DNA of 32,000 nt from Nostoc sp. PCC 7120 = FACHB-418 (GCF_000009705.1 NC_003272.1:1680001-1712000); one strand, 5' to 3'; positions 9,151 to 32,000 are shown, numbered from the stretch's first letter. Program-made: numbers and translations. The notes: generated by a model from the sequence alone, not told the origin.

Positions 9151-9664
9151 TTTTCAGTAACCTTAAAACTTCTACATTGCTAGCGAAATCTATAGCCTGA
9201 AAATCATCCAAATTTCTTAAATATAAGTTAGGATGGTATTGTAGGAGCAACTTCACTACTTCTGTCTTACCTGCTGATGCAGCATACATTAAAACAGTAG
9301 CACCGTTATCATTTTGGTTATCGATATTAATTTTTGCAGCCAGTAGCAGATGAATTAAGTCATAATGATTGCCAAAACAAGCAAACCACAAAGCATTATT
9401 ATTGTCGTTGTTTCTAGCATTGATATCTACACCTAAATCAATTAGTTCTTTGACGACGGCATCAACCCCTTCTCGTGTAGCTTTCATCAAAGCACTATCG
9501 CCATTTTCCCCAGGTTGTTCTAAGTCTTCAGGATTGTAGCCTTTTCCTATCAACCATTCTTGAGTGGTTTGACTCAAATTGAAATGACTTTTCCGGTTCA
9601 TCATTTGTTGTTGTAATTCAGAAGAATTTGCATAGAAAAGGTAATGGCGGACATTGCCCACCAT
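9137..9664 (-). CDS. Ankyrin-repeat protein
   Basis: Ankyrin consensus repeats are present: GDSALMKATREGVDAVVKELIDLGVDINARNNDNNNAL and NGATVLMYAASAGKTEVVKLLLQY. The stop (9137-9139) overlaps the downstream start (9150) by 14 nt. The start is uncertain: the track uses TTG at 9676, the first ATG is at 9664, and MMNRK lies further in. Confidence 0.8.
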   Translation of the reverse strand: MVGNVRHYLFYANSSELQQQMMNRKSHFNLSQTTQEWLIGKGYNPEDLEQPGENGDSALMKATREGVDAVVKELIDLGVDINARNNDNNNALWFACFGNHYDLIHLLLAAKINIDNQNDNGATVLMYAASAGKTEVVKLLLQYHPNLYLRNLDDFQAIDFASNVEVLRLLKNATK

Positions 9665-9716
9665 TACTAAACACAATGCTATATAATTCTAGTTATTAGA
9701 GTTGTAAAACCATACT

Positions 9717-10310
9717 CTAAACTGTAACTAGCTCTGGTTTATCAGCAAATAGTTCTCTAGCAGATTTGTCTGGTTTTGGTAAGCCATAAAAGCAGGCTTC
9801 TACTTCCAGTTCATCTACTAAATCCCAAGCTTCAATAGCTCGTTTAGAATCTGAGCCATAGTTAGCAGAAATTCCTCGCGCATCGGAGATAGCTTTGTGT
9901 AGTTCTTTGCGTAAGAAAGTTAATTTTGGTTTAGGAATACAGTCGCCTTTGCTGACAATATCTGTAATCGAAATTACGCCAAGTAATTCACCTTTAATTA
10001 CAGGCGCACACCACAGATTTGTAGTTGACAATAAACGAGCCACATACTCTACATCAAGATCAGGATCGACGGTGATGCAGGGTTTGCTCATAATTTCATA
10101 GACACGGACATTTTCTGAGTCTTTTCCATAAGCAATAACCTTACCTGCAATATCAGCCACAGTGACGATACCGTAAGCATCAGCACTATGACGAGGTTCG
10201 ACAATCAAAGCACGCAGTCCTTTGAGCCTCATAAGTCTGACTGCTTCTGCTACACTCGCAGAACCGCGAATAGTAGCTACGTCTTGAGTCATAATTTGTT
10301 TAGCTCTCAT
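9717..10310 (-). CDS. CBS-domain pair fused to a CP12-like C-terminal domain (CBS-CP12 family)
   Basis: Two CBS motifs are present (IMTQDVATI...; IMSKPCITVDPD...GVISITDIV). The C-terminal AIEAWDLVDELE matches the CP12 AWD_VEEL core. An AAGGAG Shine-Dalgarno sequence lies 6 nt upstream of the ATG. Confidence 0.8.
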   Translation of the reverse strand: MRAKQIMTQDVATIRGSASVAEAVRLMRLKGLRALIVEPRHSADAYGIVTVADIAGKVIAYGKDSENVRVYEIMSKPCITVDPDLDVEYVARLLSTTNLWCAPVIKGELLGVISITDIVSKGDCIPKPKLTFLRKELHKAISDARGISANYGSDSKRAIEAWDLVDELEVEACFYGLPKPDKSARELFADKPELVTV

Positions 10311-13429: not shown

Positions 13430-13747
13430 CTAATCAGACGATAGTTCTGTCAGCGTGATTACATTTTTTGGCTTATCCTTAAACACCTTGAACAACTTTT
13501 GTTCTTGTGGAGATGAGCCGAGAAAGACTTGATAAGCTGATTGCAAAGCTAATGAATATTGATTTAACTTTTCTTCTGCACTTATGTCTGGATAATTAGT
13601 ATCAATCTCACTGATTAATTGTGAGAACTTTTTCAAAATATGCAAACGATTAACATTGACAATTTTCGCATCGTAATCTAGCTCAAAGAACTTAAAATAT
13701 TCTTCTGCATCTACGAGCTTTTTAAATTCTTCTAGGCTCTTAGTCAT
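13430..13747 (-). CDS. nifW: Nitrogenase-stabilizing/protective protein NifW
   Basis: The 105-aa sequence begins ...EEFKKLVDAEEYFKFFELDYDAKIVNVNRLHILKKF, a NifW-type N-terminus. Its ATG overlaps the upstream stop as ATGA. Confidence 0.88.
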   Translation of the reverse strand: MTKSLEEFKKLVDAEEYFKFFELDYDAKIVNVNRLHILKKFSQLISEIDTNYPDISAEEKLNQYSLALQSAYQVFLGSSPQEQKLFKVFKDKPKNVITLTELSSD

Positions 13748-13959
13748 TTCGCATTCTCCAATTTCTTCAACTCTTGCTTGAGTTCATCTAGCTGACGATA
13801 AATTTCATAAGTTGCAGCCGCAACGTCCATTAGTTGGGTGTAATCCGTTGGCAAACCTTCTGCTAAATCGTGCAGATCCATTTTCATTTGCCCGGCTTTA
13901 CTATTGAGGCGTTTGATTTTAGTTTGTATTTCCTCAATACTTGTTTCTTCTACTTGCAT
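13744..13959 (-). CDS. Small conserved nif-cluster protein (71 aa; resembles the CCE_0567-type family found upstream of nifW in cyanobacteria)
   Basis: It has an ATGA stop/start overlap with nifW. The sequence is MQVEETSIEEIQTKIKRLNSKAGQMKMDLHDLAEGLPTD... The family assignment is from memory only. Confidence 0.7.
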   Translation of the reverse strand: MQVEETSIEEIQTKIKRLNSKAGQMKMDLHDLAEGLPTDYTQLMDVAAATYEIYRQLDELKQELKKLENAK

Positions 13960-14942: not shown

Positions 14943-14956
14943 TCTGATTACTCCTG

Positions 14957-15067
14957 AATTGGGGATTGGTGATTGGGAATTGGGGATTGGTAATTGGTAA
15001 TTGGAGACAAATTAAATTCTCTTTTATTACCTATTACCCATTACCCATTACCCATTACCCATGACCA
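14957..15067. repeat. Inverted arrays of heptameric STRR repeats in the nifN-nifX spacer
   Basis: The left arm is AATTGGG/GATTGGT heptamers (14957-15004). The right arm is TTACCCA x4 (about 15024-15067) and also supplies the last nifN codons. The arms are complementary, so the mRNA could form a long stem-loop. Confidence 0.7.
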
Positions 15068-16389
15068 GTTACAAAATTCTCATCAAAGTTCTTAACTCTG
15101 GCTTCTTCCGCATCTATAAATAGATTACCGATGCCAAACAAGACTTCCATTGAGCCGCGATAGCCGACTTTGGTGTAATGACCATTACCTAAGCGGTCAT
15201 AAATGGGGATACCGAGACGATAGTGAGGGATGGAAAGACGTTTAGCGATCGCTGCCAAGTTAGAATTACCAATTAACAGGTCAGATTCTACTGCCAGTTG
15301 TTCAAAGTCTTCTAAATCACCGATGGTTACGCTCTTGATGGGGAGTTGTTCTAGCAGGGGTGAGCGTGTGGTGGTGACGGCGGCGTGAATTTGTGTCCCC
15401 ATTGATTGCAGAAACTTGACCATTGACCACAGCAGGTCTGGTTCCAACGCCAAGGAGATGCGTTTTGCACCGAAGTAAAAGTGTGTGTCTAACATCGCAT
15501 CTTGCAACTGGCGACGTTGACGGCAATACTTTTCTGGTACTGAGTTGCTGCTGAGAATTGCTAAGGCTTGGATAAATTCGTCTACGGGTTCTAAGCCGGT
15601 GAGTTCGCTAAAGACTTCGTAGGGAATATTAAACCTGTCTTCCAGAATCCTCGCCGCACCCCGCATACTTTCACCCAAGGCGATGGTGAAGGCGGAACAA
15701 CCAACTTCTTGCAGTTGTTTTACCGTTGTTCCACTTGTTGTCACCGAACTATATTCCTCATCTAGGTGTCCATCCAAGGACGCACCAATATCAGGAACGA
15801 AGATAGGTACTAAACCAAAAGCAGTGACAATCTCTTTGATTTCTTGCAAATCTCCGGGGGTGAAAGCGGAACCAGCCAAAATTGTGACTTGTTCGCTTCT
15901 GGTTGTACCGGGTTGGGGAATTTCTTGGACGATGCTTTCCACAGCAGCCGCAAATCCATCTTGCAACGCCCCTTTAAAATCTGGTGTAGGCGCGAATACA
16001 ATTGGCAGGTGAGATATTTCCGGATGGCGATCGCGGATATCCTTAAGAAAGCGTTCAATATCATCGCCTCTGGTTTCTGTTAATCCAGTGCTACACAGAC
16101 CAATAATTTCTGGGCTGGACTTCTCCACCAAAGTGAGAATTGCTTGCTCAATATTATCTTCACCACCCAAGATAGTAGTTACTTCCGTCATCGCCGTTGT
16201 CGCCAGGGGTATGGCTTCCCGAAAATGCCGGACTAACACCACTTTGGCAAAAGCTGTACAACCTTGGGAACCGTGAAACAGAGGAATCATCCCCTTCAAT
16301 CCCAAAAAGGCTAGAGAAGCGCCTAAAGCTTGACTTTGCTTGAGAGGATTGACTGCAACTGATTTATTGGGGAGCGTAACGATCGCCAT
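15055..16389 (-). CDS. nifN: Nitrogenase FeMo-cofactor biosynthesis scaffold protein NifN
   Basis: The 444-aa sequence includes NPLKQSQALGASLAFLGLKGMIPLFHGSQGCTAFAKV. Its ATG overlaps the nifE stop as ATGA (16389). Confidence 0.95.
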   Translation of the reverse strand: MAIVTLPNKSVAVNPLKQSQALGASLAFLGLKGMIPLFHGSQGCTAFAKVVLVRHFREAIPLATTAMTEVTTILGGEDNIEQAILTLVEKSSPEIIGLCSTGLTETRGDDIERFLKDIRDRHPEISHLPIVFAPTPDFKGALQDGFAAAVESIVQEIPQPGTTRSEQVTILAGSAFTPGDLQEIKEIVTAFGLVPIFVPDIGASLDGHLDEEYSSVTTSGTTVKQLQEVGCSAFTIALGESMRGAARILEDRFNIPYEVFSELTGLEPVDEFIQALAILSSNSVPEKYCRQRRQLQDAMLDTHFYFGAKRISLALEPDLLWSMVKFLQSMGTQIHAAVTTTRSPLLEQLPIKSVTIGDLEDFEQLAVESDLLIGNSNLAAIAKRLSIPHYRLGIPIYDRLGNGHYTKVGYRGSMEVLFGIGNLFIDAEEARVKNFDENFVTGHG

Positions 16390-18465: not shown

Positions 18466-18500
18466 ACTAAGGAACTTAAAATGAATAGAGTATTTAGACG

Positions 18501-18708
18501 GGTGTAGGGGTATAGGGGTGTAGGGGTATAGGGGAGAAACAAACAATTGATTTGTAGCTATTTCATTGTCTTGTTTAATTTATTCCCTTACACTCCTACC
18601 CCCTTACACCCTCACACCCAAACTGATGATTAGATATTGGGTACTGGGGACTGGAAGGGACTGGGAAGATAATATTCCTAGTACCCAATACCCAATCCCC
18701 AGTCCCTA
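18501..18708. repeat. Two nested pairs of inverted STRR-type repeat arrays between nifK and the downstream gene
   Basis: Pair A is GGTGTAGGGGTATAGGGG.. (18501-18536) against ..CCCTTACACTCCTACCCCCTTACACCC.. (18584-18620). Pair B is TTGGGTACTGGGGACTGG.. (18637-18668) against ..CCTAGTACCCAATACCCAATCCCCAGTCCC (18678-18708). Confidence 0.7.
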
Positions 18709-18742: not shown

Positions 18743-20281
18743 CTAGCGGATCAAGTCAAAGGAGATATCGGTCTTACCAGTGATGTTGGTGCTGCGATCC
18801 ATTTCATCCAACAGGGTGTTAACAACCCAGTTGAGGATATTTAGACCACCTTGGTAGCCGAGGGTAGAATAGCGGTGTAAGTGGTGGCGATCGAAGAGAG
18901 GATAACCAATCCGCACCATTGGGATGCTGGTATCGCGCCACAGGTACTTACCGTAGGAGTTACCGATGAAGAAGTCTACAGGCTCGGTGAACAACAAGGA
19001 ACGGAAGTGCCACAAGTCTTTTTGAATCCAGACTTTAGCTTCTTTACCAAATGGGCTAGCAGCGAGGATAGCTTCCATTTCTTTCTTGAAGGTGTCATCA
19101 CCGTTGTTGCAGAGGATGTGTACTGGTTCAGCACCCATTTCTAACAAGAAGCTGGTGATGGAGATGATCAAATCTGGATCGCCGTAGATAGCGAACTTCT
19201 TACCATGAATCCAAGCGTAGGAGTCAGTGATAGCATCAACTAAACGACCGCGTTCGATTTCCAATTCTTCAGGAATAGCTTTACCGGTCAATTCAGAAAC
19301 AGCAGTCAAGAACTCGTCAGTACCCTTAACACCGAAGGGGCGCAATACTTGTGTTTCTTGCTTCCACTGGGTTTTGATGTATTCGCGGGTCTTAGGTGTG
19401 GTGTAAGCTTGGAGAGCAACAGTTGCTTTAGCGTTGATAGAATCAGCCGCATCTTCCAGCTTTGTACCACCTGGGTACATTTCGTATTCACCCATGTTAG
19501 GTGAATCAAAGTAGTCGCTGCTGTCAGACAGGATGGTGTAGTCAACACCCATTACACCCATCATCCGCTTCAATTCGCGGTTGTTACCTACATAGGTATC
19601 AAAACCAGGAATGAAGTTAATTTTGCCGTTGCTGGTAGCTTTCTTCTTACCTTCTGTCAAGTTAGACAGAATACCCTTCATCATGTTGTCGTAGCCAGTG
19701 ATGTGGGAACCAACAAAGCTAGGTGTGTGAGCAAAGGGTACGGGGAAATCTTGAGGAATAGAACCAGCGTTCTTGGAGTTGGTGATGAACGCGCCCAAGT
19801 CATCTCCGATAACTTCCGCCATACAGGTGGTGCAAACAGCAATCATCTTAGGCTTGTACAGTTGGTATGAAACCTGCATACCTTCGATCATGTTGTTCAA
19901 ACCACCGAATACTGCTGCATCTTCTGTCATGGAAGAAGATACTGCGGAGCAAGGCTCTTTGTAGTGACGGCTGAGGTGTGTACGGAAGTAAGCAACGCAA
20001 CCTTGAGAACCTTGTACGAAAGGTAGAGTACCTTCAAAACCCAAAGCAGCGAACATCGCGCCTACAGGTTGGCAACCTTTAGCAGGGTTAACGGTTAAAG
20101 CTTCACGAGCGAAGTTCTTTTCCCGGTAGTCCCAAGATTTTGTCCATTCAGACACTCTTTCAACTTCTTCAGGAGGATGAGCGCCTTCAAAGTTCTTTCT
20201 CTTGTTTTCAAATAGCTCGGTGTATTCTGGCTGTTTGAATAGATCAACGTGGTCTACAGTTCTTTCTGGATTCTGAGGCAT
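18743..20281 (-). CDS. nifK: Nitrogenase molybdenum-iron protein beta chain
   Basis: The 512-aa sequence includes GCQPVGAMFAALGFEGTLPFVQGSQGCVAYFRTHLSRHYKEP, CTTCMAEVIGDDL and HTPSFVGSHITGYDNM, which are canonical NifK motifs. Confidence 0.97.
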   Translation of the reverse strand: MPQNPERTVDHVDLFKQPEYTELFENKRKNFEGAHPPEEVERVSEWTKSWDYREKNFAREALTVNPAKGCQPVGAMFAALGFEGTLPFVQGSQGCVAYFRTHLSRHYKEPCSAVSSSMTEDAAVFGGLNNMIEGMQVSYQLYKPKMIAVCTTCMAEVIGDDLGAFITNSKNAGSIPQDFPVPFAHTPSFVGSHITGYDNMMKGILSNLTEGKKKATSNGKINFIPGFDTYVGNNRELKRMMGVMGVDYTILSDSSDYFDSPNMGEYEMYPGGTKLEDAADSINAKATVALQAYTTPKTREYIKTQWKQETQVLRPFGVKGTDEFLTAVSELTGKAIPEELEIERGRLVDAITDSYAWIHGKKFAIYGDPDLIISITSFLLEMGAEPVHILCNNGDDTFKKEMEAILAASPFGKEAKVWIQKDLWHFRSLLFTEPVDFFIGNSYGKYLWRDTSIPMVRIGYPLFDRHHLHRYSTLGYQGGLNILNWVVNTLLDEMDRSTNITGKTDISFDLIR

Positions 20282-20480: not shown

Positions 20481-20622
20481 TTAGGCAGCAGCCTTAGCCT
20501 TTGCAGCCGCTTTCTTCCAAGGAGCGCCAATCAAGCTCCAAGTTGGGCTGTTGAGGGCTAAATCCATGTCACGGGCGAAGATAGCGAATCCGTCGTAACC
20601 GTGATAAGGGCCGGAGTAATCC
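20481..20622 (-). CDS. nifD: Nitrogenase MoFe protein alpha chain, 3'-terminal segment (last 46 codons), separated from the rest of the gene by the nifD element
   Basis: Manual reverse translation gives (D)[45 protein letters not shown]. The stop is at 20481-20483. There is no start codon, and the frame is continuous with the segment at 31901-32000 once the element is removed. Confidence 0.92.
20612..20622. repeat. Left (nifK-proximal) 11-bp recombination core of the nifD element
   Basis: CGGAGTAATCC on the + strand (GGATTACTCCG in the nifD sense) is identical to 31901-31911 and in direct orientation. Confidence 0.92.
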
Positions 20623-20652
20623 TTTTTGTGGTTTAATGGCTTTCAACAGCTT

Positions 20653-20705
20653 AATGTTTGCACTGAGCAGTGTTAGTGATGAACATTGTTTGCTGATAAC
20701 ACATT
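20653..20705 (+). promoter_or_regulatory. xisA upstream regulatory region with candidate NtcA (VF1/BifA) binding sites
   Basis: Two TGT-N9-ACA palindromes are present: TGTTAGTGATGAACA (20671-20685) and TGTTTGCTGATAACA (20687-20701). Three ACATT/AATGT pentamers lie at 20653-20657, 20683-20687 and 20701-20705. Published footprinting reported three adjacent factor-binding sites upstream of xisA. My mapping onto these exact bases is inference. Confidence 0.5.
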
Positions 20706-20740
20706 AATTTTTAGGCTAAATATAGGCTAATACCACAGCG

Positions 20741-22159
20741 ATGCAAAATCAGGGTCAAGACAAATATCAACAAGCCTTTGCAGACTTAGAGCCACTTTCA
20801 TCTACCGACGGCAGTTTTCTCGGCTCAAGTCTGCAAGCACAGCAGCAAAGAGAACACATGAGAACAAAAGTACTACAAGACCTAGACAAGGTAAATCTGC
20901 GTTTGAAGTCTGCAAAGACGAAAGTCTCAGTTCGAGAATCTAACGGAAGTCTGCAATTACGAGCAACGTTACCAATTAAACCTGGAGATAAGGACACCAA
21001 CGGTACAGGCAGAAAGCAATACAATCTCAGCTTGAATATCCCTGCAAACTTGGATGGACTGAAGACGGCTGAGGAAGAAGCTTATGAATTAGGTAAATTA
21101 ATCGCTCGGAAAACCTTTGAATGGAATGATAAATATTTAGGCAAAGAAGCCACTAAAAAAGATTCACAAACAATAGGTGATTTACTAGAAAAATTTGCAG
21201 AAGAGTATTTTAAAACCCATAAACGCACCACTAAAAGCGAACATACCTTTTTTTACTATTTTTCCCGCACCCAACGATATACCAATTCCAAAGATTTAGC
21301 AACGGCGGAAAATCTCATCAATTCAATTGAGCAAATCGATAAAGAATGGGCGAGATATAATGCCGCCAGAGCCATATCAGCTTTTTGCATAACATTCAAT
21401 ATAGAAATTGATTTGTCCCAGTATTCCAAAATGCCTGATCGCAATTCGCGCAACATCCCCACAGATGCAGAAATACTATCAGGAATTACCAAATTTGAAG
21501 ACTATCTAGTTACCAGAGGAAATCAAGTTAATGAAGATGTAAAAGATAGCTGGCAACTTTGGCGCTGGACATATGGAATGTTAGCAGTTTTTGGTTTACG
21601 CCCCAGGGAAATTTTTATTAACCCTAATATTGATTGGTGGTTAAGCAAAGAGAATATAGACCTCACATGGAAAGTAGACAAAGAATGTAAAACTGGTGAA
21701 AGACAAGCATTACCCTTACATAAAGAATGGATTGATGAGTTTGATTTAAGAAATCCGAAATATTTAGAAATGCTGGCAACAGCAATTAGTAAAAAAGATA
21801 AAACAAATCATGCTGAAATAACAGCCTTAACTCAGCGTATTAGTTGGTGGTTTCGGAAAGTCGAATTAGATTTTAAACCCTATGATTTACGTCACGCCTG
21901 GGCAATTAGAGCGCATATTTTAGGCATACCAATCAAAGCGGCGGCTGATAATTTGGGGCATAGTATGCAGGTTCATACACAAACCTATCAGCGCTGGTTC
22001 TCGCTAGATATGCGGAAGTTAGCGATTAATCAGGCTTTGACTAAGAGGAATGAATTTGAGGTGATTAGGGAGGAGAATGCTAAATTGCAGATAGAAAATG
22101 AAAGGTTGAGGATGGAAATTGAGAAGTTAAAGATGGAAATAGCTTATAAGAATAGTTGA
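20741..22159 (+). CDS. xisA: Site-specific tyrosine recombinase (excisase) of the nifD element
   Basis: The 472-aa sequence has a C-terminal catalytic region, ...YDLRHAWAIRAHILGIPIKAAADNLGHSMQVHTQTYQRW, carrying the R/H-x-x-R/H/Y residues of phage-integrase-family enzymes. It lies 118 bp inside the left repeat. The C-terminal tail is a coiled coil (ENAKLQIENERLRMEIEKLKMEI). Confidence 0.95.
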   Translation: MQNQGQDKYQQAFADLEPLSSTDGSFLGSSLQAQQQREHMRTKVLQDLDKVNLRLKSAKTKVSVRESNGSLQLRATLPIKPGDKDTNGTGRKQYNLSLNIPANLDGLKTAEEEAYELGKLIARKTFEWNDKYLGKEATKKDSQTIGDLLEKFAEEYFKTHKRTTKSEHTFFYYFSRTQRYTNSKDLATAENLINSIEQIDKEWARYNAARAISAFCITFNIEIDLSQYSKMPDRNSRNIPTDAEILSGITKFEDYLVTRGNQVNEDVKDSWQLWRWTYGMLAVFGLRPREIFINPNIDWWLSKENIDLTWKVDKECKTGERQALPLHKEWIDEFDLRNPKYLEMLATAISKKDKTNHAEITALTQRISWWFRKVELDFKPYDLRHAWAIRAHILGIPIKAAADNLGHSMQVHTQTYQRWFSLDMRKLAINQALTKRNEFEVIREENAKLQIENERLRMEIEKLKMEIAYKNS

Positions 22160-22352
22160 ATTTTATAAAAATAATCTGCTCAATGCTTACAGTAAAAAAA
22201 GCTTTAAATAATATTTAAAAAAAATACAATCATAAAATATGAGTAATTAATATCTTAAAAGTATTTTATATTGAGCAAGGTAAGTATAATGAATAAAAGA
22301 GATTCTTATATTTTAGTATTAATCTTTGTTTAAAGAGATAAATAAAGAATTT

Positions 22353-23375
22353 ATGAGTACTGTTGGAATTTTTGGGGGAAGAGGTACTTCAGAAGAAAGC
22401 CATCTTCAGAATGCTAGATGCCAATATATGGTTCTTGATGAGGTAGATGTTGCAATAACGAATGAATACCGTCGCTTTAAATTTCTCATTTTTCCATCAC
22501 GATTATTTACATTTGCTAGGATATGTGCTAATGCAATTAATAATAATATAGCTTTTCCAACTTGCATGGAGCGATTTTTGGAACGTGGAGGACGCATCCT
22601 TTTTTGTCCTCCATCTCAACTACCAACTGACTATTGGTACCATGAAGAACGTACTTGCTTACTAATAAACTGGTTACCAGTTGGAACTTTAAAGTTACAT
22701 CAAGGCTCTAGACGTAAACAAACAGTCTCTATTCAAGTACAACAGCCCGATCACCCTATTTGTAACGACCTTACGGGCAAAGAGAAAGTTGATCTGTATA
22801 GTTACTTTTCATTTGAGGGAATATTGAACGCTGAGGTGCTTATTTCGAGCAGAAGAGGTACACCTTTAATCACCACAATACCATTTGGTGCAGGATTTGT
22901 TCTTGTTAGTGCTATAGACTTGCCCTTTCTCCACCCAGATTTTCCTAGTAGTGATGCTACAAGCCTATTTCATAACATTCTTCATTGGGGTCAAGAAGTT
23001 CCTAGTATAGCCGTCACTTTTAATTCATTAGTAACGCGTGTCTTAACTCATGTAGGGAGTCATGAAGCTCACCTTATGGAAAGGGCGGATCAAGCAATAT
23101 TAGCATGTCGGTATAGCGAAGCTTGCGACTACGCATTCAGAGCATTCGAGAGAATTTTACGTTTTAAGGCTGGAAGTACAAAAACATTAAATGACGCTAT
23201 TGATCAACTTTTTCCAAAAACAAGTTCACAAAATAGTTTTTGTCATGGAGTAAGAATTACACGTAATGCATCCGCTCATGGTACTCGTTTACCAGAGGAA
23301 GTTACTATTGAGGAAACTGAATGTTTATTCAGTTCAATAAAATTTATTCTTTCTGGATTGTTAGCAGATCCGTAG
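22353..23375 (+). CDS. Two-domain hypothetical protein: unknown N-terminal domain plus a C-terminal DUF4145/HEPN-like domain
   Basis: The C-terminal ~110 aa (...ILACRYSEACDYAFRAFERILRF...LNDAIDQL...HGVRITRNASAHG...TIEETECLFSSIKFIL) fits the DUF4145 pattern. It contains an R-x4-H motif, RNASAH, at 23262-23279. I start it at ATG 22353 (MSTVGIFGG); the track uses an upstream TTG at 22326. The region is visibly AT-rich. Confidence 0.6.
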   Translation: MSTVGIFGGRGTSEESHLQNARCQYMVLDEVDVAITNEYRRFKFLIFPSRLFTFARICANAINNNIAFPTCMERFLERGGRILFCPPSQLPTDYWYHEERTCLLINWLPVGTLKLHQGSRRKQTVSIQVQQPDHPICNDLTGKEKVDLYSYFSFEGILNAEVLISSRRGTPLITTIPFGAGFVLVSAIDLPFLHPDFPSSDATSLFHNILHWGQEVPSIAVTFNSLVTRVLTHVGSHEAHLMERADQAILACRYSEACDYAFRAFERILRFKAGSTKTLNDAIDQLFPKTSSQNSFCHGVRITRNASAHGTRLPEEVTIEETECLFSSIKFILSGLLADP

Positions 23376-23430
23376 TTATGTTTGTATCTCTAATGATGTG
23401 AGCATACTGATTTAGTAGCAAGTAGCAATT

Positions 23431-23490
23431 AGGGTGCGTCAGCTTGGATATACATTTCATCATGAATATTAATTAACGCTGACGCACCCT
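23431..23490. repeat. Dispersed hairpin repeat (second copy of the AGGGTGCGTCAG family)
   Basis: The arms are AGGGTGCGTCAGC (23431-23443) and GCTGACGCACCCT (23478-23490). The same arms occur at 413-473, outside the element. Confidence 0.55.
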
Positions 23491-23674
23491 ACAGAATAAT
23501 TTTTGAGAAGAAAGTGTTAGCGTAATTTACCGTAGGTATCACCCCAAAAAAAACAAGCATAAAGTTGCAGATATATCCACAGGTGATCGCGTAAACAGCT
23601 GATCGCAACAACATAAAATACAATAAAACATAATACACACAAAGCCTGTTATTCCCTTTTGTGAGGCAGTCTTA

Positions 23675-24235
23675 ATGGTACAGACCCCATCCAAACCCAT
23701 CACATTAGACGAGTTCCTGAAATTACCAGCAACAGAACCCGCCAGTGAATATATAGAAGGTAAGATTATCCAAAAACCTATGCCGCAAGGAAAGCACAGT
23801 GCAATTCAAGGCGAATTTGTACCTGTTATTAATAGTGTAGTTAAACCTCAACGTATCGCTCGTGCTTTTCCTGAACTGCGTTGTACATTTGTCGGTCGTT
23901 CAACTGTACCTGATATTTCCGTCTTTATTTGGAGTCGGATTCCCCGTGAAGAGAATGGGGAAATTGCTAATAATTTTTCTATTGCTCCCGATTGGACAAT
24001 TGAAATTTTATCACCTGACCAAAGTCAGACGAAAGTAACCAAAAATATCCTGCATTGTTTGAAACATGGTACTCAAATGGGTTGGTTAATTGACCCCGAT
24101 GAGCAAACTGTATTTGTTTACCATCCTCAACAAGAAACTGAAGTATTTGATGAGCCAGATGCACTCATAGCTGTACCATCATTTGCGAGTGAACTTCAAT
24201 TGACTATTCAAGATTTGTTTAGTTGGTTGCTGTAG
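23675..24235 (+). CDS. Uma2-family (DUF820) PD-(D/E)xK putative endonuclease
   Basis: ITLDEFLKLP...EYIEGKIIQKPMPQGKHS...VPDISVF...APDWTIEILSPDQS...K...Y...G....WLIDPDEQTVFVY is the typical Uma2 layout. Confidence 0.8.
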   Translation: MVQTPSKPITLDEFLKLPATEPASEYIEGKIIQKPMPQGKHSAIQGEFVPVINSVVKPQRIARAFPELRCTFVGRSTVPDISVFIWSRIPREENGEIANNFSIAPDWTIEILSPDQSQTKVTKNILHCLKHGTQMGWLIDPDEQTVFVYHPQQETEVFDEPDALIAVPSFASELQLTIQDLFSWLL

Positions 24236-24262
24236 TGAAAGTTATCACTTTTCTAAGTTATT

Positions 24263-24829
24263 TTAATCGAAAATTACACCGCAATAAATTTCGGCGATCG
24301 CCAACTCTTTAGCAACTGATTCCAAGAAAATAGAACCCTCCAACCCGTTAAATTCACTCAGTAACCAGCCTTGGGTTTGCTTGCTGTAACGTTCCACGAA
24401 CGGCTCATCCTGCTCGATTAATAAATATTCCCTAAAAATCTGAATTGTCTGATACATCCGAAACTTGCTTTGGCGATCGTAATCTGCGGTAGATGGAGAT
24501 AAGACTTCAACAATTAAAATAGGATTTAACACTTCATCTAGTCGAGCCTCATTCAGTTGTGGTTCACCTGCAAAAACCATCACATCGAGATATAATCCCC
24601 GTCGATATTCAGGAATCCACAGTCGCAAATCGCTGTTAATTGGCTCGAATTGAGTATCTCACAGCACAGAGGTAAGATAAGTCAAAATATTTCGACTAAT
24701 ACGACTATGTTTGAGAGTTCCTCCAGGCATAGGCACTATTTCCCCATCTCGATATTCGCTGCGTCTTTCTGCTTTTTCCTCAAGAGCGCGATATTCATCC
24801 AAACTGTAGCGGCGCTTAGTAGAAACCAT
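24263..24829 (-). pseudogene. Uma2-family endonuclease gene interrupted by an in-frame TGA
   Basis: The reading frame from ATG 24829 gives MVSTKRRYSLDEYRALEEKAERRSEYRDGEIVPMPGGTLKHSRISRNILTYLTSVL, then TGA at 24659-24661. The same frame continues DTQFEPINSDLRLWIPEYRRGLYLDVMVFAG...VEVLSPSTADYDRQSKFRMY... to the stop at 24263. The ORF track only reports the part after the stop. Confidence 0.75.
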
Positions 24830-25062
24830 AGGTCGTAGCCCATCACGTCGGCTTTAGCACAACAATAACATTTTGTCACAGATTTAGTGACAATTTTATG
24901 CTGAGAATAAAATGCGGCAGTACGAAAGAAAGTAACTATAGCAGTTGTATTCCTCTCAATATTAAGAATACTGTGATATTACGTAGGTGCGTTTTCCGTT
25001 CTCCTGATTACAATTGTGAGATTATTTATCTTTTTATATTGGACAAGGGAGAAAACTGTGAA

Positions 25063-25728
25063 ATGGCTCTTACGGAAAAGATTATTGAATTAGTCCTTGA
25101 TAAAGTTTTGCTTGGTGGCATTGTTTTGGTAGCAGGTCACTGGCTTAACAAAAGGTTTGAGATATTTAAGAATGAAACTAATGAAAAGTATTACCAAAGG
25201 CAGCTAATTGCTGAACTGGAAAATCAACAGAAGCAACAAGTTTCTGAGCTAGAGAATGAGATTGCCATAGCTAGGCACAACGCAGAGATTAACTTGATAG
25301 AAAGACAAATATCTGAGTTTTACTGGCCTATATACTTGAGACTAGAAAAAGATAATGTCATGTGGAAGCGCATCAAGTCTTTAAGTCCTGAACAAAATGT
25401 TTTACCGGAAGCGGCGAGTGACGCTATAGAAAAAGAATTTATCCTGAAAAATCATCAAGAAATGGTTGAAATTATAGAATCCAAAATTCATTTAGCGGAA
25501 AATGCTAATAACAGCAAAGACTTGATTAATGAACTATTAAAATATATCAAACACGTCGCGGTATACAAAACAATTCGCTCTGTTAAAGAACTGCAAACAA
25601 TTAATCCAGTTGATTTAAATGAGCCTTTTCCTGACAAGCTTTTTCCCATGATTGAAAGTAACTTTCGGGAATTGCAGAATAGGTATGAGTATCTTAAAAA
25701 TGTTAAATTTGGAGAACTTAAGAAATAA
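25063..25728 (+). CDS. Hypothetical membrane-anchored coiled-coil protein (221 aa)
   Basis: I start it at ATG 25063, which is preceded by AAGGGAGA. The N-terminus is hydrophobic (KVLLGGIVLVAGHWL), followed by a coiled-coil-like segment (QRQLIAELENQQKQQVSELENEIAIARHNAEINLIERQ). I recognise no family. The 55 upstream codons in the track look non-coding. Confidence 0.55.
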   Translation: MALTEKIIELVLDKVLLGGIVLVAGHWLNKRFEIFKNETNEKYYQRQLIAELENQQKQQVSELENEIAIARHNAEINLIERQISEFYWPIYLRLEKDNVMWKRIKSLSPEQNVLPEAASDAIEKEFILKNHQEMVEIIESKIHLAENANNSKDLINELLKYIKHVAVYKTIRSVKELQTINPVDLNEPFPDKLFPMIESNFRELQNRYEYLKNVKFGELKK

Positions 25729-25990
25729 CTCAATTCAAAATTCCAAATAAAAACTATATTCCCTTGTGGGTGGAGTTTTTGTCAGTGACACGGTTGATCC
25801 GCGATCGCCTACAACCAACCAGATGTCATTGCCTAACTCGTCTTTTTATGAATTTTGGTAGTCTTTATTTTTAAATAGGTCTCAAAAAACTACTATTATT
25901 ATGTAATTACCGTAATAATTGCTTGCAAAATTTATTATTTATTACAAGCTTAAGCATTTATACTGACAAAAACGCCTTTAATTTAAAAAT

Positions 25991-27145
25991 ATGCAAATAC
26001 GCTTTTTTGCTACCAACCGCGATCGCCAAAATCTAGGTCTCAATGTTGACCGTGATACACGCATTAAATTACTAAAATTTGGTTATCACTGGGTTGATAT
26101 GAAAAAATATATGGCTCACTATTTGGCGACTACTGATCCTTCAACTATGCCACCAGGAGTAATTATTGAAGATTCTGAGGAGACTGTATTTAACAAGTTT
26201 CTCAAAAAAGAGGCCGTAAAACACATTATCATTGGCACTCATGGTTACAATGTTCCTTTTCATGGGGCATTAACTTCTTTTTCGATTTTGGCAGACACCC
26301 TTAAGGGAGCCTTAAAAAAGCATAATTTTACTTTGATTGCTGATCCAGAAGAAAAGATAGATATCGACAACTCCAACCAAAATTTAATCGCTTTTGTCGG
26401 ATTTTCCTGGCCTTCCAATGGCAAAGTTTTAGATTACAATTCGGATCGTACTGAGTGTGTACAATCTGCCCCAGCCTTAGCTAATCTGATCAGTTATATT
26501 CGCACTAAAAAACCTGACATTAAAATCTACGTCATAGCTCACAGTATGGGCAGTTACCTTGTTTGCCATATGTTGGAACAGCTAGTTAACCAAGCCTTTG
26601 AGCCAACAGAATTGAATGAGGAGATTAAAAACAGATTAAAACGAAAAGATAGAGGCGGAGAAAATACTTTTTTTGTCGATCGCTATTTTATGTTAGCTCC
26701 TGATGTGGAACGTCGGGAAGTGACCAAGTGTGATCTAGGCGGATCTGAATATACAGGCCCGTTTTACTCTGGTCTGGAACACCTGGTTCAAGAAAGTCAT
26801 GTATTCTACTCTCGCTACGATAATGCACTAAAAGCCTCAGTAGTTGAAAAAGACGCAATTCGTGAGTCATTGCAGAAAGGATTCGAGTTATTCACCGGCC
26901 CCGACTTGCAAAAACGTTGGGAGAGCAGCCTTGGTCTCAACCCCTTACCAGCTTTAGCTCCCAATAATGTCTACAGTCATAATGCAACAGTGTTGACTAA
27001 TCGACAAATCGACCATGGAGACTATTTCGATGCTCCCGCAATCATAGATCAAATCGCCAATATCATATCTGAAGCAAATACTAGTCGCATTCCTGAGCTT
27101 CCCTGGCGTTTTTCTGAGTCAAGCGATCGCCCTCTAATAGAGTAA
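25991..27145 (+). CDS. Alpha/beta-hydrolase, DUF900-like putative esterase/lipase
   Basis: The N-terminus ...FFATNRDR is typical of DUF900. GTHGYNVPF is present, along with the nucleophile elbow VIAHSMGSY (GxSxG-type). Confidence 0.7.
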   Translation: MQIRFFATNRDRQNLGLNVDRDTRIKLLKFGYHWVDMKKYMAHYLATTDPSTMPPGVIIEDSEETVFNKFLKKEAVKHIIIGTHGYNVPFHGALTSFSILADTLKGALKKHNFTLIADPEEKIDIDNSNQNLIAFVGFSWPSNGKVLDYNSDRTECVQSAPALANLISYIRTKKPDIKIYVIAHSMGSYLVCHMLEQLVNQAFEPTELNEEIKNRLKRKDRGGENTFFVDRYFMLAPDVERREVTKCDLGGSEYTGPFYSGLEHLVQESHVFYSRYDNALKASVVEKDAIRESLQKGFELFTGPDLQKRWESSLGLNPLPALAPNNVYSHNATVLTNRQIDHGDYFDAPAIIDQIANIISEANTSRIPELPWRFSESSDRPLIE

Positions 27146-27506
27146 AATTTGAGATGCAAAAATTAACGTCGGCTCAATAGCTCATGGCGATGACCTTCGG
27201 CTGTCGGGGACTATCGCATCAGAGATAATTAATCATGTCTGCATACATAACTTAAAAGCTCATGAAAACATGGTTCCGGTATGTGTTGATATCGAATGCA
27301 ATCTTCAATTTGTTTGGAGCAGTCATGTTTGCAATTCTTTGCGATCACTTTTATCTACTGGCTGTTTCAAACCAGTCAAAAAACTTAGCTATCGCCAAAT
27401 AGACAATTTGCTACTATTAAAAAAATTGAGAATTGCCTACAATCCAAATTAGGTAATAAACTCCGATCGGAGACCATCGCCAGAATAGCAGATTTGCAAA
27501 AACACT

Positions 27507-28085
27507 ATGGCAAAACGCAAGAAAAGCAATCTCCAGTGGATTAAAGAAACTCTCGACTTAAAACCAGACCATCGTTGGGAAGCGCCAGATGGCTACAGAA
27601 TATTTGTAGCTAATCGCGGGGCTGTTCGCTTCAACGTCCCTCAAGACTGGTTTTTTGAGCCACAGGAAAAATCCTTCAAATTCAGCGATAAAAAACCACC
27701 CAAAGATGATTGCGCGTTGGAAGTGTCTTTTAATCAACTTCCTCCCAACGACTGGACTCTGTTTCCCCTCAAATCCACCTTGAGGAAAGTAGTAGAAGAC
27801 GACGGCCGTGATGTGATTGAGAAAGGAGAAATCATTAGCCTCAAGCGCCAAACTGCCAAAATTGTCTGGACAGAACTCAAATTTATCGATACCCAAGAAG
27901 AACCACGGGAAGCTTTTTCGCGGATTTGCATTGGTTTGGGGTCAAATGTGCAATGTTTGATTACATTCGAGTTTTGGGCTGATCAAGCAGAGCAAATGAC
28001 ACCTGTTTGGGATGAAGTCATGCGATCGCTTACACTAGGTCTGTATATCCGTGACCCAAGCACTGGTTTGGCTTTCCCCGACTGA
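27507..28085 (+). CDS. Hypothetical protein (192 aa)
   Basis: The long ORF has an ATG start and lies 28 nt upstream of the P450 start on the same strand. I recognise no family. Confidence 0.55.
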
Positions 28086-28113
28086 GCCACAGTTAATAAT
28101 CAGGGTAAATATT

Positions 28114-29493
28114 ATGTTGACTCAATTACCAAATCCTATTAGTGTCCCTTCATGGTGGCAACTTATCAATTGGATTGCTGATCCGATTGGATTTCAGAAA
28201 AAATATAGTAAAAAGTATGGCAACATTTTTTCCATGCAGCTTGCTGGAATCGGCTCTTTCGTAATTTTAGGGGAGCCTCAAGCTCTTCAAGAAATTTTCA
28301 CCCAAGATTCTAGATTTGATGTTGGTCGGGGAAATACACTTGCAGAGCCTCTCATTGGGCGAACTTCTCTTATGTTAATGGATGGCGATCGCCATCGACG
28401 AGAACGAAAATTATTAATGCCCCCCTTTCATGGAGAAAGGCTACAAGCTTATGCTCAACAAATCTGCTTAATTACCAACCAGATCGCCAGCGAATGGCAA
28501 ATTGGGCAACCTTTTGTTGCTAGGTCTGCCATGCAGAAACTGAGTCTAGAGGTGATTATACAAATTGTCTTTGGTTTAGCTGACGGAGAACGCTATCAAC
28601 AAATAAAGCCTCTATTCACAGATTGGCTGAATATGACTGATTCTCCCTTACGCTCCAGTATGCTTTTTCTAAAGTCCCTACAAAAAGATTGGGGAACCTG
28701 GACTCCTTGGGGACAGATGAAACATAAACAACGTTCTATTTATGATCTACTCCAAGCAGAAATAGAAGAGAAAAGAACAAAGGAAAATGAGCAGCGCGGT
28801 GATGTTCTAAGTTTGATGATGGCAGCACGAGATGAAAATGGGCAAGCCATGACAGACGAGGAACTAAAAGATGAATTGCTAACAATTTTATTTGCTGGAC
28901 ATGAAACTACCGCAACCACAATAGCGTGGGCTTTCTATCAAATTTTAAAAAATGTAAATGTGCAGGAAAAATTACAGCAGGAACTCGACAGATTGGGAGC
29001 AAACCCTAACCCAATGGAAATTGCCCAGCTTCCTTACCTAACAGCAGTTTCTCAAGAAACTCTGCGGATGTATCCAGTCTTACCAACACTTTTTCCACGC
29101 ATTACCAAATCATCTATAAATATTGCCGGATACCAATTGGAACCTGACACAACCTTAATGGCGAGTATATACCTCATACATTACCGGGAAGACTTGTATC
29201 CTAATCCTCAACAATTTCGACCAGAACGTTTTATAGAACGGCAATATTCTCCTTCAGAATACATTCCTTTTGGTGGTGGAAGTCGTCGCTGTTTGGGATA
29301 TGCTCTAGCTCTGTTAGAAATAAAATTGGTTATTGCAACAGTTCTATCAAATTATCAACTTGCTCTAGCGGAAGATAAACCTGTTAACGTGCAACGACGT
29401 GGATTTACCCTGGCTCCAGATGGTGGAGTTAGGGTAATAATGACTGGCAAAAAATCATTGAAATTTGAGCAAAGTAGCAAGATTTTCAACTGA
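28114..29493 (+). CDS. cyp110: Cytochrome P450 (the CYP110-type P450 known from the nifD element)
   Basis: The heme-binding loop is [14 protein letters not shown] (FxxGxRxCxG). The I-helix is FAGHETTA and the K-helix is ETLR. I start it at ATG 28114 (MLTQLPNPI); the track uses an upstream GTG at 28051 that overlaps the preceding gene. Confidence 0.92.
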
Positions 29494-29877
29494 AGATTTG
29501 ACAGTATTTCATATTGAGCTTATTTAGAAGCGTCAAGGCGAATTAAGTTAGTATTGATTAACCCATAGAATACTAATTATTGAGCATATAGATACAATAA
29601 CTTATGACTCTATCTGAGATACTTCCTGCTGTTCGGAGACTTTCCACAACAGAAAAACTCAAGCAGACTTCGCAGCAGTCAAGTTAGTGTCTGCATGGGT
29701 GCGTAGTCCGAATGCACCTCTAATTCTTGGTCAAACCAACTTTTTTATTGAGTTCGACGTTTGCTTTTACCGTTCCCAGTTTGAGTTTGAAGTACAACCA
29801 AAGTCCTCAACAGCAAGCTAACAATCATTGGGCTCGGACTAATTTGCGATCGCCATCACTGTGTCTTTTATACCTTG

Positions 29878-29954
29878 GCGTAGCTTACCATAGCGATCGC
29901 GTAGCTAATCAAGGTAATTGCATTCTTTTTATGACGATAAGATAAATTATCAGT
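29878..29954 (+). repeat. 77-bp direct repeat, copy A
   Basis: The sequence is GCGTAGCTTACCATAGCGATCGCGTAGCTAATCAAGGTAATTGCATTCTTTTTATGACGATAAGATAAATTATCAGT. It matches copy B at 70 of 77 positions, and the two copies are offset by 351 bp. Confidence 0.8.
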
Positions 29955-29983
29955 CACGCCATTAGAGTTAATAGGAGCGCAAA

Positions 29984-30100
29984 ATGACGGAGAATGATCA
30001 GGCAATCAGCCAAATACGTCAAATTCGCCACATGATATCTGAGGAAAATGAACACAACCCTCAGAAACTGGTGAATTACTACATCCAACTCCAGAAGTAA
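29984..30100 (+). CDS. Small ORF (38 aa) with a strong Shine-Dalgarno sequence, bracketed by the 77-bp repeats
   Basis: AGGAG (29973-29977) lies 6 nt upstream of the ATG. The translation is MTENDQAISQIRQIRHMISEENEHNPQKLVNYYIQLQK*. It resembles part of small conserved proteins I recall from cyanobacteria and may be truncated. Confidence 0.4.
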   Translation: MTENDQAISQIRQIRHMISEENEHNPQKLVNYYIQLQK

Positions 30101-30228
30101 TATCCTCACCTCATACAATATAATCCACAGACAGAACTTTTAAAATCGTCACCACAAAAAGGTATTGAAGCCTAAATACGCAAGTAATCTGTAAAGTCTG
30201 CCAAGTTGTAAAAAATTTTATTGCATTA

Positions 30229-30305
30229 GCGTAGTTTACTGTAGCGATCGCCTAGCTAATCAAGATAATTGCATTCTGTTGATGACGATAAGATAAATTA
30301 TCAGT
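30229..30305 (+). repeat. 77-bp direct repeat, copy B
   Basis: The sequence is GCGTAGTTTACTGTAGCGATCGCCTAGCTAATCAAGATAATTGCATTCTGTTGATGACGATAAGATAAATTATCAGT. Confidence 0.8.
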
Positions 30306-30645
30306 GATGGGAACAACTACTTAAGCTTACCGTAGGTATCGCTAACTTTAGCCATTAGTGCGTTAGCGGAGCTTACCGTAGGTATCGCCAGCCCATCAAG
30401 CTAATTCAATCATATAAAAATCCAAGGTTTTTTATGTGCTTACATAAATGCGCTTACACAAATTTTATCTAAAATATGAATGTATTATTTAATACTTTAT
30501 TTTTTTGGCTATAACTTTAGCTAATGCTCGCAAGAAATCTATATAATCTAGATTTGTGTTTAACTTGTTTACGTAATAATACTACTACAAGCAATCTTAA
30601 ATTGGTGCTAAATTAAAACAATACTTTAATACTACTGAGAGGCAG

Positions 30646-30933
30646 TTGTTAGTGATACCAGAAGGGACAGTGGTTGTGGAAGCAAACGTCAGACTGACTG
30701 TCAAAATCTTAAAAGATGGCGATCAGGTTTTAAATGTCTGGTACTGCAATTCAAGTTATTTTGTCGCCATCCGACAAAATAATGGAGAGGTTTGTGTGTA
30801 TTCTGTAACCTTAGATGAAGAAAAGATTCCAAGACTAAGCAAAACTCCGCCTTTGAAAGTCACATTTGGTGAAGGTGAGGTAGAAGCCATTATAAGTTCA
30901 GAAGATGGAGATATTAAAGTAACGACTGACTAA
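30646..30933 (+). CDS. Hypothetical protein (about 93-95 aa), first gene of the HNH mini-operon
   Basis: The ORF has a non-ATG start (TTG 30646 or GTG 30652) preceded by GAGAGG (30637-30642). The next ORF follows 26 nt later on the same strand. I recognise no family. Confidence 0.45.
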   Translation: MLVIPEGTVVVEANVRLTVKILKDGDQVLNVWYCNSSYFVAIRQNNGEVCVYSVTLDEEKIPRLSKTPPLKVTFGEGEVEAIISSEDGDIKVTTD

Positions 30934-30959
30934 GCAGGAACTTCAAACACAAATATATT

Positions 30960-31163
30960 ATGGCAAAAAATTCAGACAGAAATCGAGCTATTAACGCAAA
31001 AATTGACAATTTGACTGCTGAAGAGCAAGAAAAACTCAGCGACGCTATAAGGAAAGCTAAAAGAAGTATTGCTCCAAATGCCAGATCCACAGTTGTTGAA
31101 TACGAGCAAGGTAAGTTACCTTCTTCTCAATCTCAAAATCAACTTGAAGGACAGAACGATTAA
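30960..31163 (+). CDS. Hypothetical charged small protein (67 aa)
   Basis: It has an ATG start, sits tightly between the flanking same-strand ORFs, and is Lys/Glu/Gln-rich. I recognise no family. Confidence 0.45.
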   Translation: MAKNSDRNRAINAKIDNLTAEEQEKLSDAIRKAKRSIAPNARSTVVEYEQGKLPSSQSQNQLEGQND

Positions 31164-31189
31164 AGTAAGAATTTGAGAAATAACATTTT

Positions 31190-31420
31190 ATGACACAAAA
31201 AAGACCTTACGAACATCGAAAAGCACAAAAACAAGTCAAGAATTTAGAATCTTATCAATGTATGGTTTGCTGGGAGGTTAACTCCAAAGCTAATGGTCAT
31301 CACTTAATTCCCTATAGTGAAGGAGGTTCTGCTGATATTCAAAACATGATGACTCTTTGTCCTTCATGTCATACAAAGTATCATAAAGGTGAACTAAAAA
31401 TCGATATTCATAGATTTTGA
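31190..31420 (+). CDS. Small HNH endonuclease
   Basis: CMVCWEVNSKANGHHLIPYSEGGSADIQNMMTLCPSCHTKYH carries the HNH motif (H-H...N...H) with flanking CxxC pairs. Confidence 0.8.
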   Translation: MTQKRPYEHRKAQKQVKNLESYQCMVCWEVNSKANGHHLIPYSEGGSADIQNMMTLCPSCHTKYHKGELKIDIHRF

Positions 31421-31470
31421 TATTGACTAACAAAGCTCAGTATCTTAAGTTTATTATTCGCAATTTATAT

Positions 31471-31530
31471 CAATAGTTGTGTTGAAGAGACTCACAACTC
31501 TATTGTAGAGGATGTTTTTAGCATCCTCTA
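31471..31530. terminator. Two adjacent hairpins downstream of the HNH gene (candidate bidirectional terminator)
   Basis: The first hairpin is CAATAGTTGTG (31471-31481) against CACAACTCTATTG (31493-31505), with a 2-nt bulge. The second is TAGAGGATG (31506-31514) against CATCCTCTA (31522-31530), followed by ATTTTACATTT. Confidence 0.5.
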
Positions 31531-31900
31531 ATTTTACATTTCTTTTCTATCCTTGAATAACTTTAATTATTTTCTATATAGTAGCTGGAATATAGATTTT
31601 CTGTCGCATACCTCATCGCATACTTCCTAGTCTTAGTGATTCAAAGCGATCGCCTAACCGACCCACATTAATCTAAAATAATAACAATTAAAATAGTCTT
31701 TTATTTTACAATTTTCATATACCCCAAATCTAACCAAAACCCAAAAACCAGACCCAATAACAGTTATATTGTCTTAAGCCGCAAAAATGTATTGTTCCCA
31801 GATAACCCTACAACCTGTATTTAGGCTAAAAATAGACTCTTTTTTCTCCCCTCACAAAAAAACCTTACCTCATCTGACATCTGCACCCCGTCGCCAAGTT

Positions 31901-31911
31901 CGGAGTAATCC
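31901..31911. repeat. Right (nifH-proximal) 11-bp recombination core of the nifD element
   Basis: CGGAGTAATCC is identical to 20612-20622. Confidence 0.92.
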
Positions 31912-32000
31912 CAAGAGTGCATTTGACGGAAGGGAAGACCCATCTTTTGGAAGACGTACTTCTCTTTAATACCAGAAGCAATTAAATCAGGCTTCTTAGC
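31901..32000 (-). CDS. nifD: Nitrogenase MoFe protein alpha chain, upstream segment (partial; continues beyond the right window edge)
   Basis: Manual reverse translation gives [33 protein letters not shown], a conserved NifD region. In the unrearranged state the frame runs on into the element and stops at 31821-31823. Confidence 0.92.

Follow-up and report, generated by a model that had tools for sequence, protein, structure and literature searches.

An 11.3-kb interruption of nifD with the features of the XisA-excised nifD element of Nostoc sp. PCC 7120

The stretch of DNA considered here (the window, 32,000 nucleotides (nt) in all) covers part of the nif region of a cyanobacterial chromosome and carries, in its right-hand part, a nitrogenase gene, nifD, that is split by an element of 11.3 kilobases (kb), the nifD element, with its own recombinase gene, xisA. 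The 3' fragment of nifD lies on the minus strand at 20481..20621 and consists of 46 codons and a stop (ending AAA*); its first 10 nt fall inside a copy of a core sequence of 11 base pairs (bp) at 20612..20622. This left, nifK-proximal core reads CGGAGTAATCC on the plus strand and GGATTACTCCG on the strand of nifD. The right, nifH-proximal core at 31901..31911 (plus strand) is again exactly CGGAGTAATCC, and the 3' end of the 5' part of nifD occupies 31902..32000 on the minus strand, from where the gene extends past the window edge. Inside the left end of the element, xisA (20741..22159, plus strand) encodes a tyrosine recombinase of 472 amino acids (aa), starts 118 bp past the left repeat and reads away from nifD.

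The original prediction took the two nifD pieces for consecutive parts of the nitrogenase alpha subunit, and the peptides that it gave for them stand: the minus strand from 32000 to 31902 translates into a 33-residue NifD peptide, and the 3' fragment translates into 46 residues that are colinear with solved NifD structures. The start given for the second translation does not stand, since position 20622 opens a stop-filled frame and the 46-residue peptide begins at 20621. The identity and direct orientation of the two 11-mers were described exactly. There are precisely two copies of CGGAGTAATCC in the window, and the chance expectation is 0, as no match was produced by any of 100 dinucleotide-preserving shuffles. 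The start-to-start distance between the copies is 11,289 bp, which is the excised length that had been counted. In silico removal of 20623-31911, comprising one core copy and the intervening DNA, brings the two minus-strand pieces into one frame, again as predicted. When completed with 1.3 kb from a public contig (L088) that is identical to the window across the overlap, the restored nifD is 1,494 nt long and encodes 497 aa, and the repeat begins at nt 1353. The comparison of the fused reading frame with NifD that had been proposed as a check was run, and restored NifD aligns colinearly, end to end and with no gap at the junction, with solved alpha chains of the molybdenum-iron (MoFe) protein (9hbc_A, E 1.7e-254); a block of 27 residues that spans the junction is identical to 9hbc_A. 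By this alignment, the two pieces follow directly on each other in NifD. After excision, the fused nifD junction would read GGGCCGGAGTAATCCCAAGAG (in longer context, AAGGGCCGGAGTAATCCCAAGAG) and the junction of the excised circle would read AAGTTCGGAGTAATCCTTTTTGTGG (in longer context, CCAAGTTCGGAGTAATCCTTTTTGTGG). Dyad symmetry around the cores reaches at most 6 matching pairs of 12, and we draw no claim from it.

In the unrearranged DNA, the 5' open reading frame (ORF) of nifD continues across the right repeat and adds 26 unrelated residues before a stop at 31821. The product is a truncated protein of 480 aa that is without the last 43 residues of NifD. The element also separates nifK from nifH and the 5' part of nifD until excision takes place. 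The earlier statement that no functional nifD can be made from this molecule therefore holds, because the last 43 residues are missing and nifK lies 11.3 kb away from nifH and the truncated nifD.

The measured features can be set directly against those published for Nostoc (Anabaena) sp. PCC 7120. In the table of Hilton et al. 2016 (PMC4874684), the PCC 7120 nifD element has the repeat GGATTACTCCG, an insertion at nifD position 1353, a tyrosine-type recombinase, alr1442, that starts 118 bp from the element end, a length of 11.289 kb, a guanine-plus-cytosine (GC) fraction of 0.3775 and the coordinates 1711911..1700623 of NC_003272. The window gives nt 1353, 118 bp, 11,289 bp and a GC fraction of 0.3775 (compared with 0.4205 in the rest of the window), each equal to the published value. 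The other known length of the PCC 7120 element, 11,268 bp, belongs to the Sanger sequence of 1990 (PMC1079853), and it is the genome-based 11,289 bp that is matched here. The xisA product is identical to BAB73399.1/XISA_NOSS1, and the same protein occurs in 105 blocks of a public assembly collection. A cytochrome P450 and a 76-aa HNH protein of the element are likewise identical to the PCC 7120 proteins CPXN_NOSS1 and ANRX_NOSS1. Between 10741 and 32000 the window is 99.99-100% identical to contigs from NCBI, JGI, ENA and Logan. An apparent 49-bp indel relative to contig L003 near 22194-22252 is a run of N in the scaffold and represents no polymorphism. Judged by this identity, the window is the chromosome of Nostoc/Anabaena sp. 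PCC 7120, or of an indistinguishable sibling strain, at approximately 1,680,001-1,712,000 of NC_003272, and every feature that we measured is the same as in the PCC 7120 nifD element (xisA = alr1442; GenBank U38537; NC_003272 1700623-1711911). A split gene of this kind could in principle be produced by assembly, through the chimeric joining of two nifD-containing regions. We found no specific evidence for such a join, and the same arrangement is present at 99.99-100% identity in the independent NCBI, JGI, ENA and Logan assemblies and recurs in 78 related species; an artefact is barely credible.

The sequence features that characterize XisA-type nifD elements are all present: the interruption of nifD near nt 1353-1355, direct repeats of GGATTACTCCG, the precise restoration of NifD, and an xisA orthologue at the nifK-proximal end in the orientation opposite to nifD. 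Late in heterocyst differentiation, XisA would recombine the two directly repeated cores and the element would leave as a circle; the chromosome would afterwards hold one core copy, an intact nifD of 497 codons and a contiguous nifHDK operon. Inactivation of xisA is said to block both the rearrangement and nitrogen fixation, and the xisA-dependent excision in heterocysts is reportedly to be credited to Golden 1985, Golden and Wiest 1988, and Brusca 1990. The repeat GGATTACTCCG and the XisA-mediated excision of an 11-kb element that restores nifD are described in PMC11249958, and loss of the element leaves nitrogen fixation normal in a cured strain (PMC1079853, where the element content is also given). 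We are nearly certain that the window holds the nifD element in its vegetative-cell state, to be cut out by its own XisA during heterocyst differentiation. Developmentally programmed DNA excision in bacteria has its founding example in the nifD element. As the original prediction already recognized, it is not new; it is known in every respect examined and adds no new biology here. The only points that are possibly new are an invariant 7-nt portion of the core and a pair of subterminal motifs, to which we return below.

Nothing in the sequence contradicts this identification, and there are several points that limit it. One DNA molecule cannot show excision, and the heterocyst specificity, the xisA dependence and the dispensability of the element are taken from the literature. 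Searches of metagenome and viral contig collections gave no circle junction. A control scan of the contig collections recovered only nine integrated left junctions, and since only a minority of cells are heterocysts, the absence of the circle carries no information. The Pfam model Phage_integrase (PF00589) scores XisA at 22.3 bits, below its gathering cut-off of 27.1. The AlphaFold2 models of XisA are too poor to show whether it has the two-domain C-clamp fold, with a mean predicted local distance difference test (pLDDT) score of 41.4 from the single sequence and 51.2 from an alignment of 30 sequences, which were orthologues of 78-96% identity; the catalytic domain stays below a pLDDT of 50.

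The class membership of XisA was examined separately because of the Pfam score. Residues 72-437 of XisA match the PHROGs family phrog_1 (integrase) with an E value of 5.8e-10. Against PDB sequences, XisA on its own gives a marginal match (E 0.017) and a profile of its close orthologues a somewhat better one (E 0.0013). An exhaustive HMMER search yielded 941 XisA relatives, down to 25-30% identity, and a profile built from 45 diverse relatives convincingly matches the XerC-like structure 4a8e_A over both domains (E 3.4e-17), as well as the structures of XerA, XerD and IntI4. PF00589 is matched individually by 21 of the same 45 relatives. By these profile matches, XisA belongs to the tyrosine recombinase superfamily, and the claim that a tyrosine recombinase gene of 472 codons lies 118 bp inside the left repeat is borne out, the ORF beginning at 20741. 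Alignment to the XerC-like protein places the putative catalytic residues at R287 (in GLRPRE), K317, Y381, R384 (in YDLRH), H407 (in LGH) and Y416. Across the XisA family, R287, K317, R384, H407 and Y416 vary little or not at all. The first histidine of the canonical set R-K-H-R-H/W-Y is replaced by Tyr381, a substitution that has been published for XisA and XisC (PMC3466309). Codons 2-39 of xisA vary mostly at third positions (0.086/0.043/0.238 for the three positions), as does the remaining gene, and this bias in the first 39 codons supports the start that gives 472 codons.

To compare the element with its relatives, one genome per species was scanned, which gave 80 loci with XisA relatives of 81-96% identity. 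The nifD 3' fragment lies directly upstream of xisA and in the opposite orientation in 78 of these; the other two are without upstream DNA. The spacing from the core to the xisA start is 129 nt, as in the window, in the loci that match from residue 1, and approximately 130 nt inside each border of the element are conserved. Anabaena (Trichormus) variabilis ATCC 29413 and other Nostocales, in which the interruption falls within nifD nt 1353-1355, share the core, the insertion point and the position and orientation of xisA with the window. The XisA of ATCC 29413 is 96% identical to that of the window. The elements of ATCC 29413 and the other Nostocales differ from that of the window in cargo and in length, which is 11.074 kb in ATCC 29413 (Hilton et al. 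2016, PMC4874684) and 1.86-11.0 kb in the loci compared here. Among the elements with both ends in reach, the largest measures 11.0 kb and the smallest 1,856 bp. The latter, in the metagenome-assembled genome Cyanobacteria bacterium P01_D01_bin.50 (L050, 9871-11737), is a natural minimal nifD element, consisting of xisA alone between borders of about 130 nt on the left and about 310 nt on the right.

A locus of this kind might also be a decayed, immobile remnant or a pseudogenized nifD, in which the repeats are relics of a target site and no rearrangement ever occurs. A broken Uma2 gene and degenerate repeated fragments at 29866-30389 inside the element would fit with such decay, as would the lack of a circle junction in public contigs. 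The recombinase gene tells otherwise: many assemblies carry an identical, intact xisA, the gene is under purifying selection that includes its first 39 codons, and the catalytic residues of its product are conserved. The border sequences are conserved as well, in all 80 loci, and published experiments report both excision and its dependence on xisA. The probability that the element is a dead remnant is thus very slight, and a functional nifD element remains our explanation for the locus.

Comparison of the cores among the related loci gives an indication of where XisA acts. The nifH-proximal copy is always CGGAGTAATCC, a constancy that is explained by the fact that the core encodes W-D-Y-S there. 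In the element-side (left) copy, CGGAGTA is invariant in the 80 loci and the last four bases vary, being ATCC, GTTC, ATTC, ACTA or TTTC. Left cores that do not end in ATCC are found in L028, L033, L035, L038, L050, L051 and L062, where the exact repeat is only 7-9 nt long. Such short exact repeats leave limited room for strand exchange in those species. It is probable, from these alignments, that strand exchange occurs within CGGAGTA(A), provided that the elements with variant cores, whose xisA genes are intact, still excise. The overlap region usual for tyrosine recombinases is 6-8 bp, and CGGAGTA(A) fits with this size.

The conserved borders contain two further sets of sites. In the region upstream of xisA (20655..20701, plus strand) there is an adjacent pair of TGT-N9-ACA sites at 20671-20685 and 20687-20701, preceded at approximately 20655-20669 by an imperfect third site of the same type, TGTTTGCACTGAGCA. 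The sequence AACATTGTT of this region is conserved in relatives. The canonical NtcA site GTA-N8-TAC is absent upstream of xisA. Three VF1/NtcA sites have reportedly been described upstream of xisA, and the TGT-N9-ACA sites, by their placement, are probably the same ones. In the whole window, TGT-N9-ACA is found 7 times where 9.3 are expected, and because there is no statistical enrichment the meaning of these sites rests on their position, their conservation and the literature.

The second set is a motif with the consensus TAGSCTA-N4-TAGSCTA close to each end of the element. The left motif, TTTAGGCTAAATATAGGCTAA (20710..20730, plus strand), contains TAGGCTA twice with 11-nt phasing, 88 nt inside the border and 10 nt before the ATG of xisA. 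The right motif, TTTAGGCTAAAAATAGACT (31820..31838, plus strand), has the same orientation and is set 62 nt inward from the right core. The consensus occurs twice in the window, as TTTAGGCTAAATATAGGCT at 20710-20728 and TTTAGGCTAAAAATAGACT at 31820-31838, where 0.03 occurrences are expected. With up to three mismatches, every one of the 80 left ends has it in the same place and 12 of the 13 right ends in reach have it too, that of L020 being more diverged; elsewhere in the 1.51 Mb of related loci it does not occur at this stringency. The motifs are retained in the 1.86-kb element that carries xisA only. From their conservation and placement, these motifs may be accessory arm-type binding sites of the recombinase. 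Conserved sites outside the core and near both ends are a point of likeness to the lambda Int and Tn916 Int systems, which have arm-type sites. The stronger proposal, that XisA is a heterobivalent recombinase like lambda Int that would bind the core and, as candidate arm sites, TAGSCTA-N4-TAGSCTA, is tentative, and we think it somewhat improbable. The arm-type interpretation is preferred because the long N-terminal part of XisA is conserved family-wide and because the low-confidence model (the run with pLDDT 51.2) shows a helix after three strands within residues 61-125. None of the arm-binding families in Pfam matched XisA. The left motif, 10 nt before the ATG, could also be a regulatory or autoregulatory site for xisA. 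We found no mention of the TAGSCTA motif in the literature searched, which did not include the founding papers of 1985-1990, so the motif may already have been described. Site recognition by XisA is still called poorly understood in recent literature, and its biochemistry could be guided by the 7 nt of the core that do not vary, the subterminal motifs and the 1.86-kb minimal element.

A phage origin of the element has been hypothesized in the literature, and an intact inducible prophage in nifD would be excised for a lytic cycle and not for restoration of a host gene. The integrase-type recombinase, the HNH protein and a GC fraction of 0.3775, lower than the surrounding 0.4205, are what a prophage might bring. 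Among the element proteins scanned, the only PHROGs matches are to integrase, to HNH endonuclease, weakly to one DNA-binding family and to one family of unknown function; with the integrase and the HNH protein set aside, the scanned ORFs have no match to families for capsid, tail, portal or replication. The 25 PHROGs matches listed for the HNH protein include one weak match to a terminase small subunit (E 0.0019). The element is only 11.3 kb long, relatives are found down to 1.86 kb with xisA alone and both borders kept, and the circle junction was not found in viral contigs. By its gene content, the element is not an intact prophage, and excision in the service of a lytic cycle is highly improbable.

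The cargo of the element is headed, on the plus strand unless otherwise stated, by an ORF of 349 aa (340 aa in some records) with a C-terminal DUF4145 (22326..23375) and an ORF of 186 aa for a putative endonuclease of the Uma2 family (23675..24235, E 2.6e-40). Adjoining the latter on the minus strand is a second Uma2 gene (24263..24829) whose coding sequence is divided between an ORF of 121 aa and one of 56 aa, called at 13523-13888 and 13919-14089 on contig L002, with a partial profile match (62-167/172). From this broken reading frame, the second gene is a probable pseudogene. There follow a 276-aa ORF of no family (24898..25728; BAB73404.1, hypothetical), a 384-aa alpha/beta hydrolase of the DUF900 family (25991..27145, E 3.4e-62), a 192-aa member of the Alr1449 family (27507..28085, PF27270) and cyp110 (28114..29493), which encodes the 459-aa cytochrome P450 (E 1.7e-82) identical to CPXN_NOSS1 and is described in PMC1079853. 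The 76-aa protein with the HNH motif is encoded at 31190..31420 (Pfam HNH/HNH_5; PHROGs E ~1e-9). Its UniProt entry, ANRX_NOSS1, bears the name 'anaredoxin', which conflicts with the assignment to the HNH endonuclease family. Several small ORFs complete the cargo. Neither Rfam at gathering thresholds nor a tRNA scan gave a match, so the element does not sit at a tRNA gene, nor does it contain a known RNA family.

Between the P450 and HNH genes lies a gene-poor segment (29866-30389) with an 89-nt repeat, the copies of which, at 29866-29954 and 30217-30305, are 87% identical. A 19-nt unit, AGCTTACCGTAGGTATCGC, is present in five copies in the same segment and once more at 23524. Read on the minus strand, the 89-nt repeat forms the terminal part of a small ORF in its first copy and contains a stop in its second, so that the copies look like gene remnants.

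To the left of the element, nifK (18743..20281, minus strand, 512 aa; Pfam DUF3364 and Oxidored_nitro) follows the nifD 3' piece downstream, and beyond it are a Mo-nitro_C ORF, nifE, nifN, nifX, a DUF269 gene, nifW, hesA, hesB, fdxH and feoA. To the right of the window come the remainder of nifD, nifH, nifU, nifS, xisF, a Uma2 gene, xisH and xisI, as in PCC 7120. The last four of these, at 15658-18910 of contig L088 and approximately 5.5 kb past the window, mark an end of the fdxN element, with xisF encoding a serine recombinase.

Other systems of developmental excision provide a frame for the nifD element. The fdxN element of PCC 7120 lies in the same nif region and is also excised specifically in heterocysts, through XisF, XisH and XisI. 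It differs in employing a serine recombinase with two accessory proteins, in its 5-bp core TATTC and in its size of 59.4 kb (PMC11249958; PMC4874684). The hupL element of PCC 7120 is likewise developmentally excised from a heterocyst gene, by XisC, a tyrosine recombinase like XisA with the same tyrosine in place of histidine; it lies outside the window, has another target gene and has core repeats that contain GCAGTTATATGG (PMC4874684). Outside the cyanobacteria there is a further parallel. The skin element of Bacillus subtilis is excised by SpoIVCA and restores sigK in a terminally differentiating cell, which is comparable to the case of nifD; unlike the nifD element, it is a 48-kb prophage remnant with a serine recombinase, and it belongs to a different phylum.

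A few features of the surrounding nif region are recorded as separate observations. Between nifK and the Mo-nitro_C ORF (18500-18619, minus strand), inverted arrays of the octamers GGGTRTAG and CCCTTACA are predicted to fold as a long RNA hairpin of -55.2 kcal/mol (z -6.2), and none of 200 shuffles was as stable. The spacer between nifN and nifX (14956-15072) is filled by heptamer arrays, with about seven copies of GAATTGG and about six of ATTACCC. These resemble the short tandemly repeated sequences of Anabaena, and the predicted pairing between the two arrays is only weakly better than in shuffles (z -1.9). Left of the nif genes, 7864-10310 on the minus strand encodes a 428-aa protein with a weak nitroreductase match, a 179-aa ankyrin-repeat protein and a 197-aa CBS-CP12 fusion.

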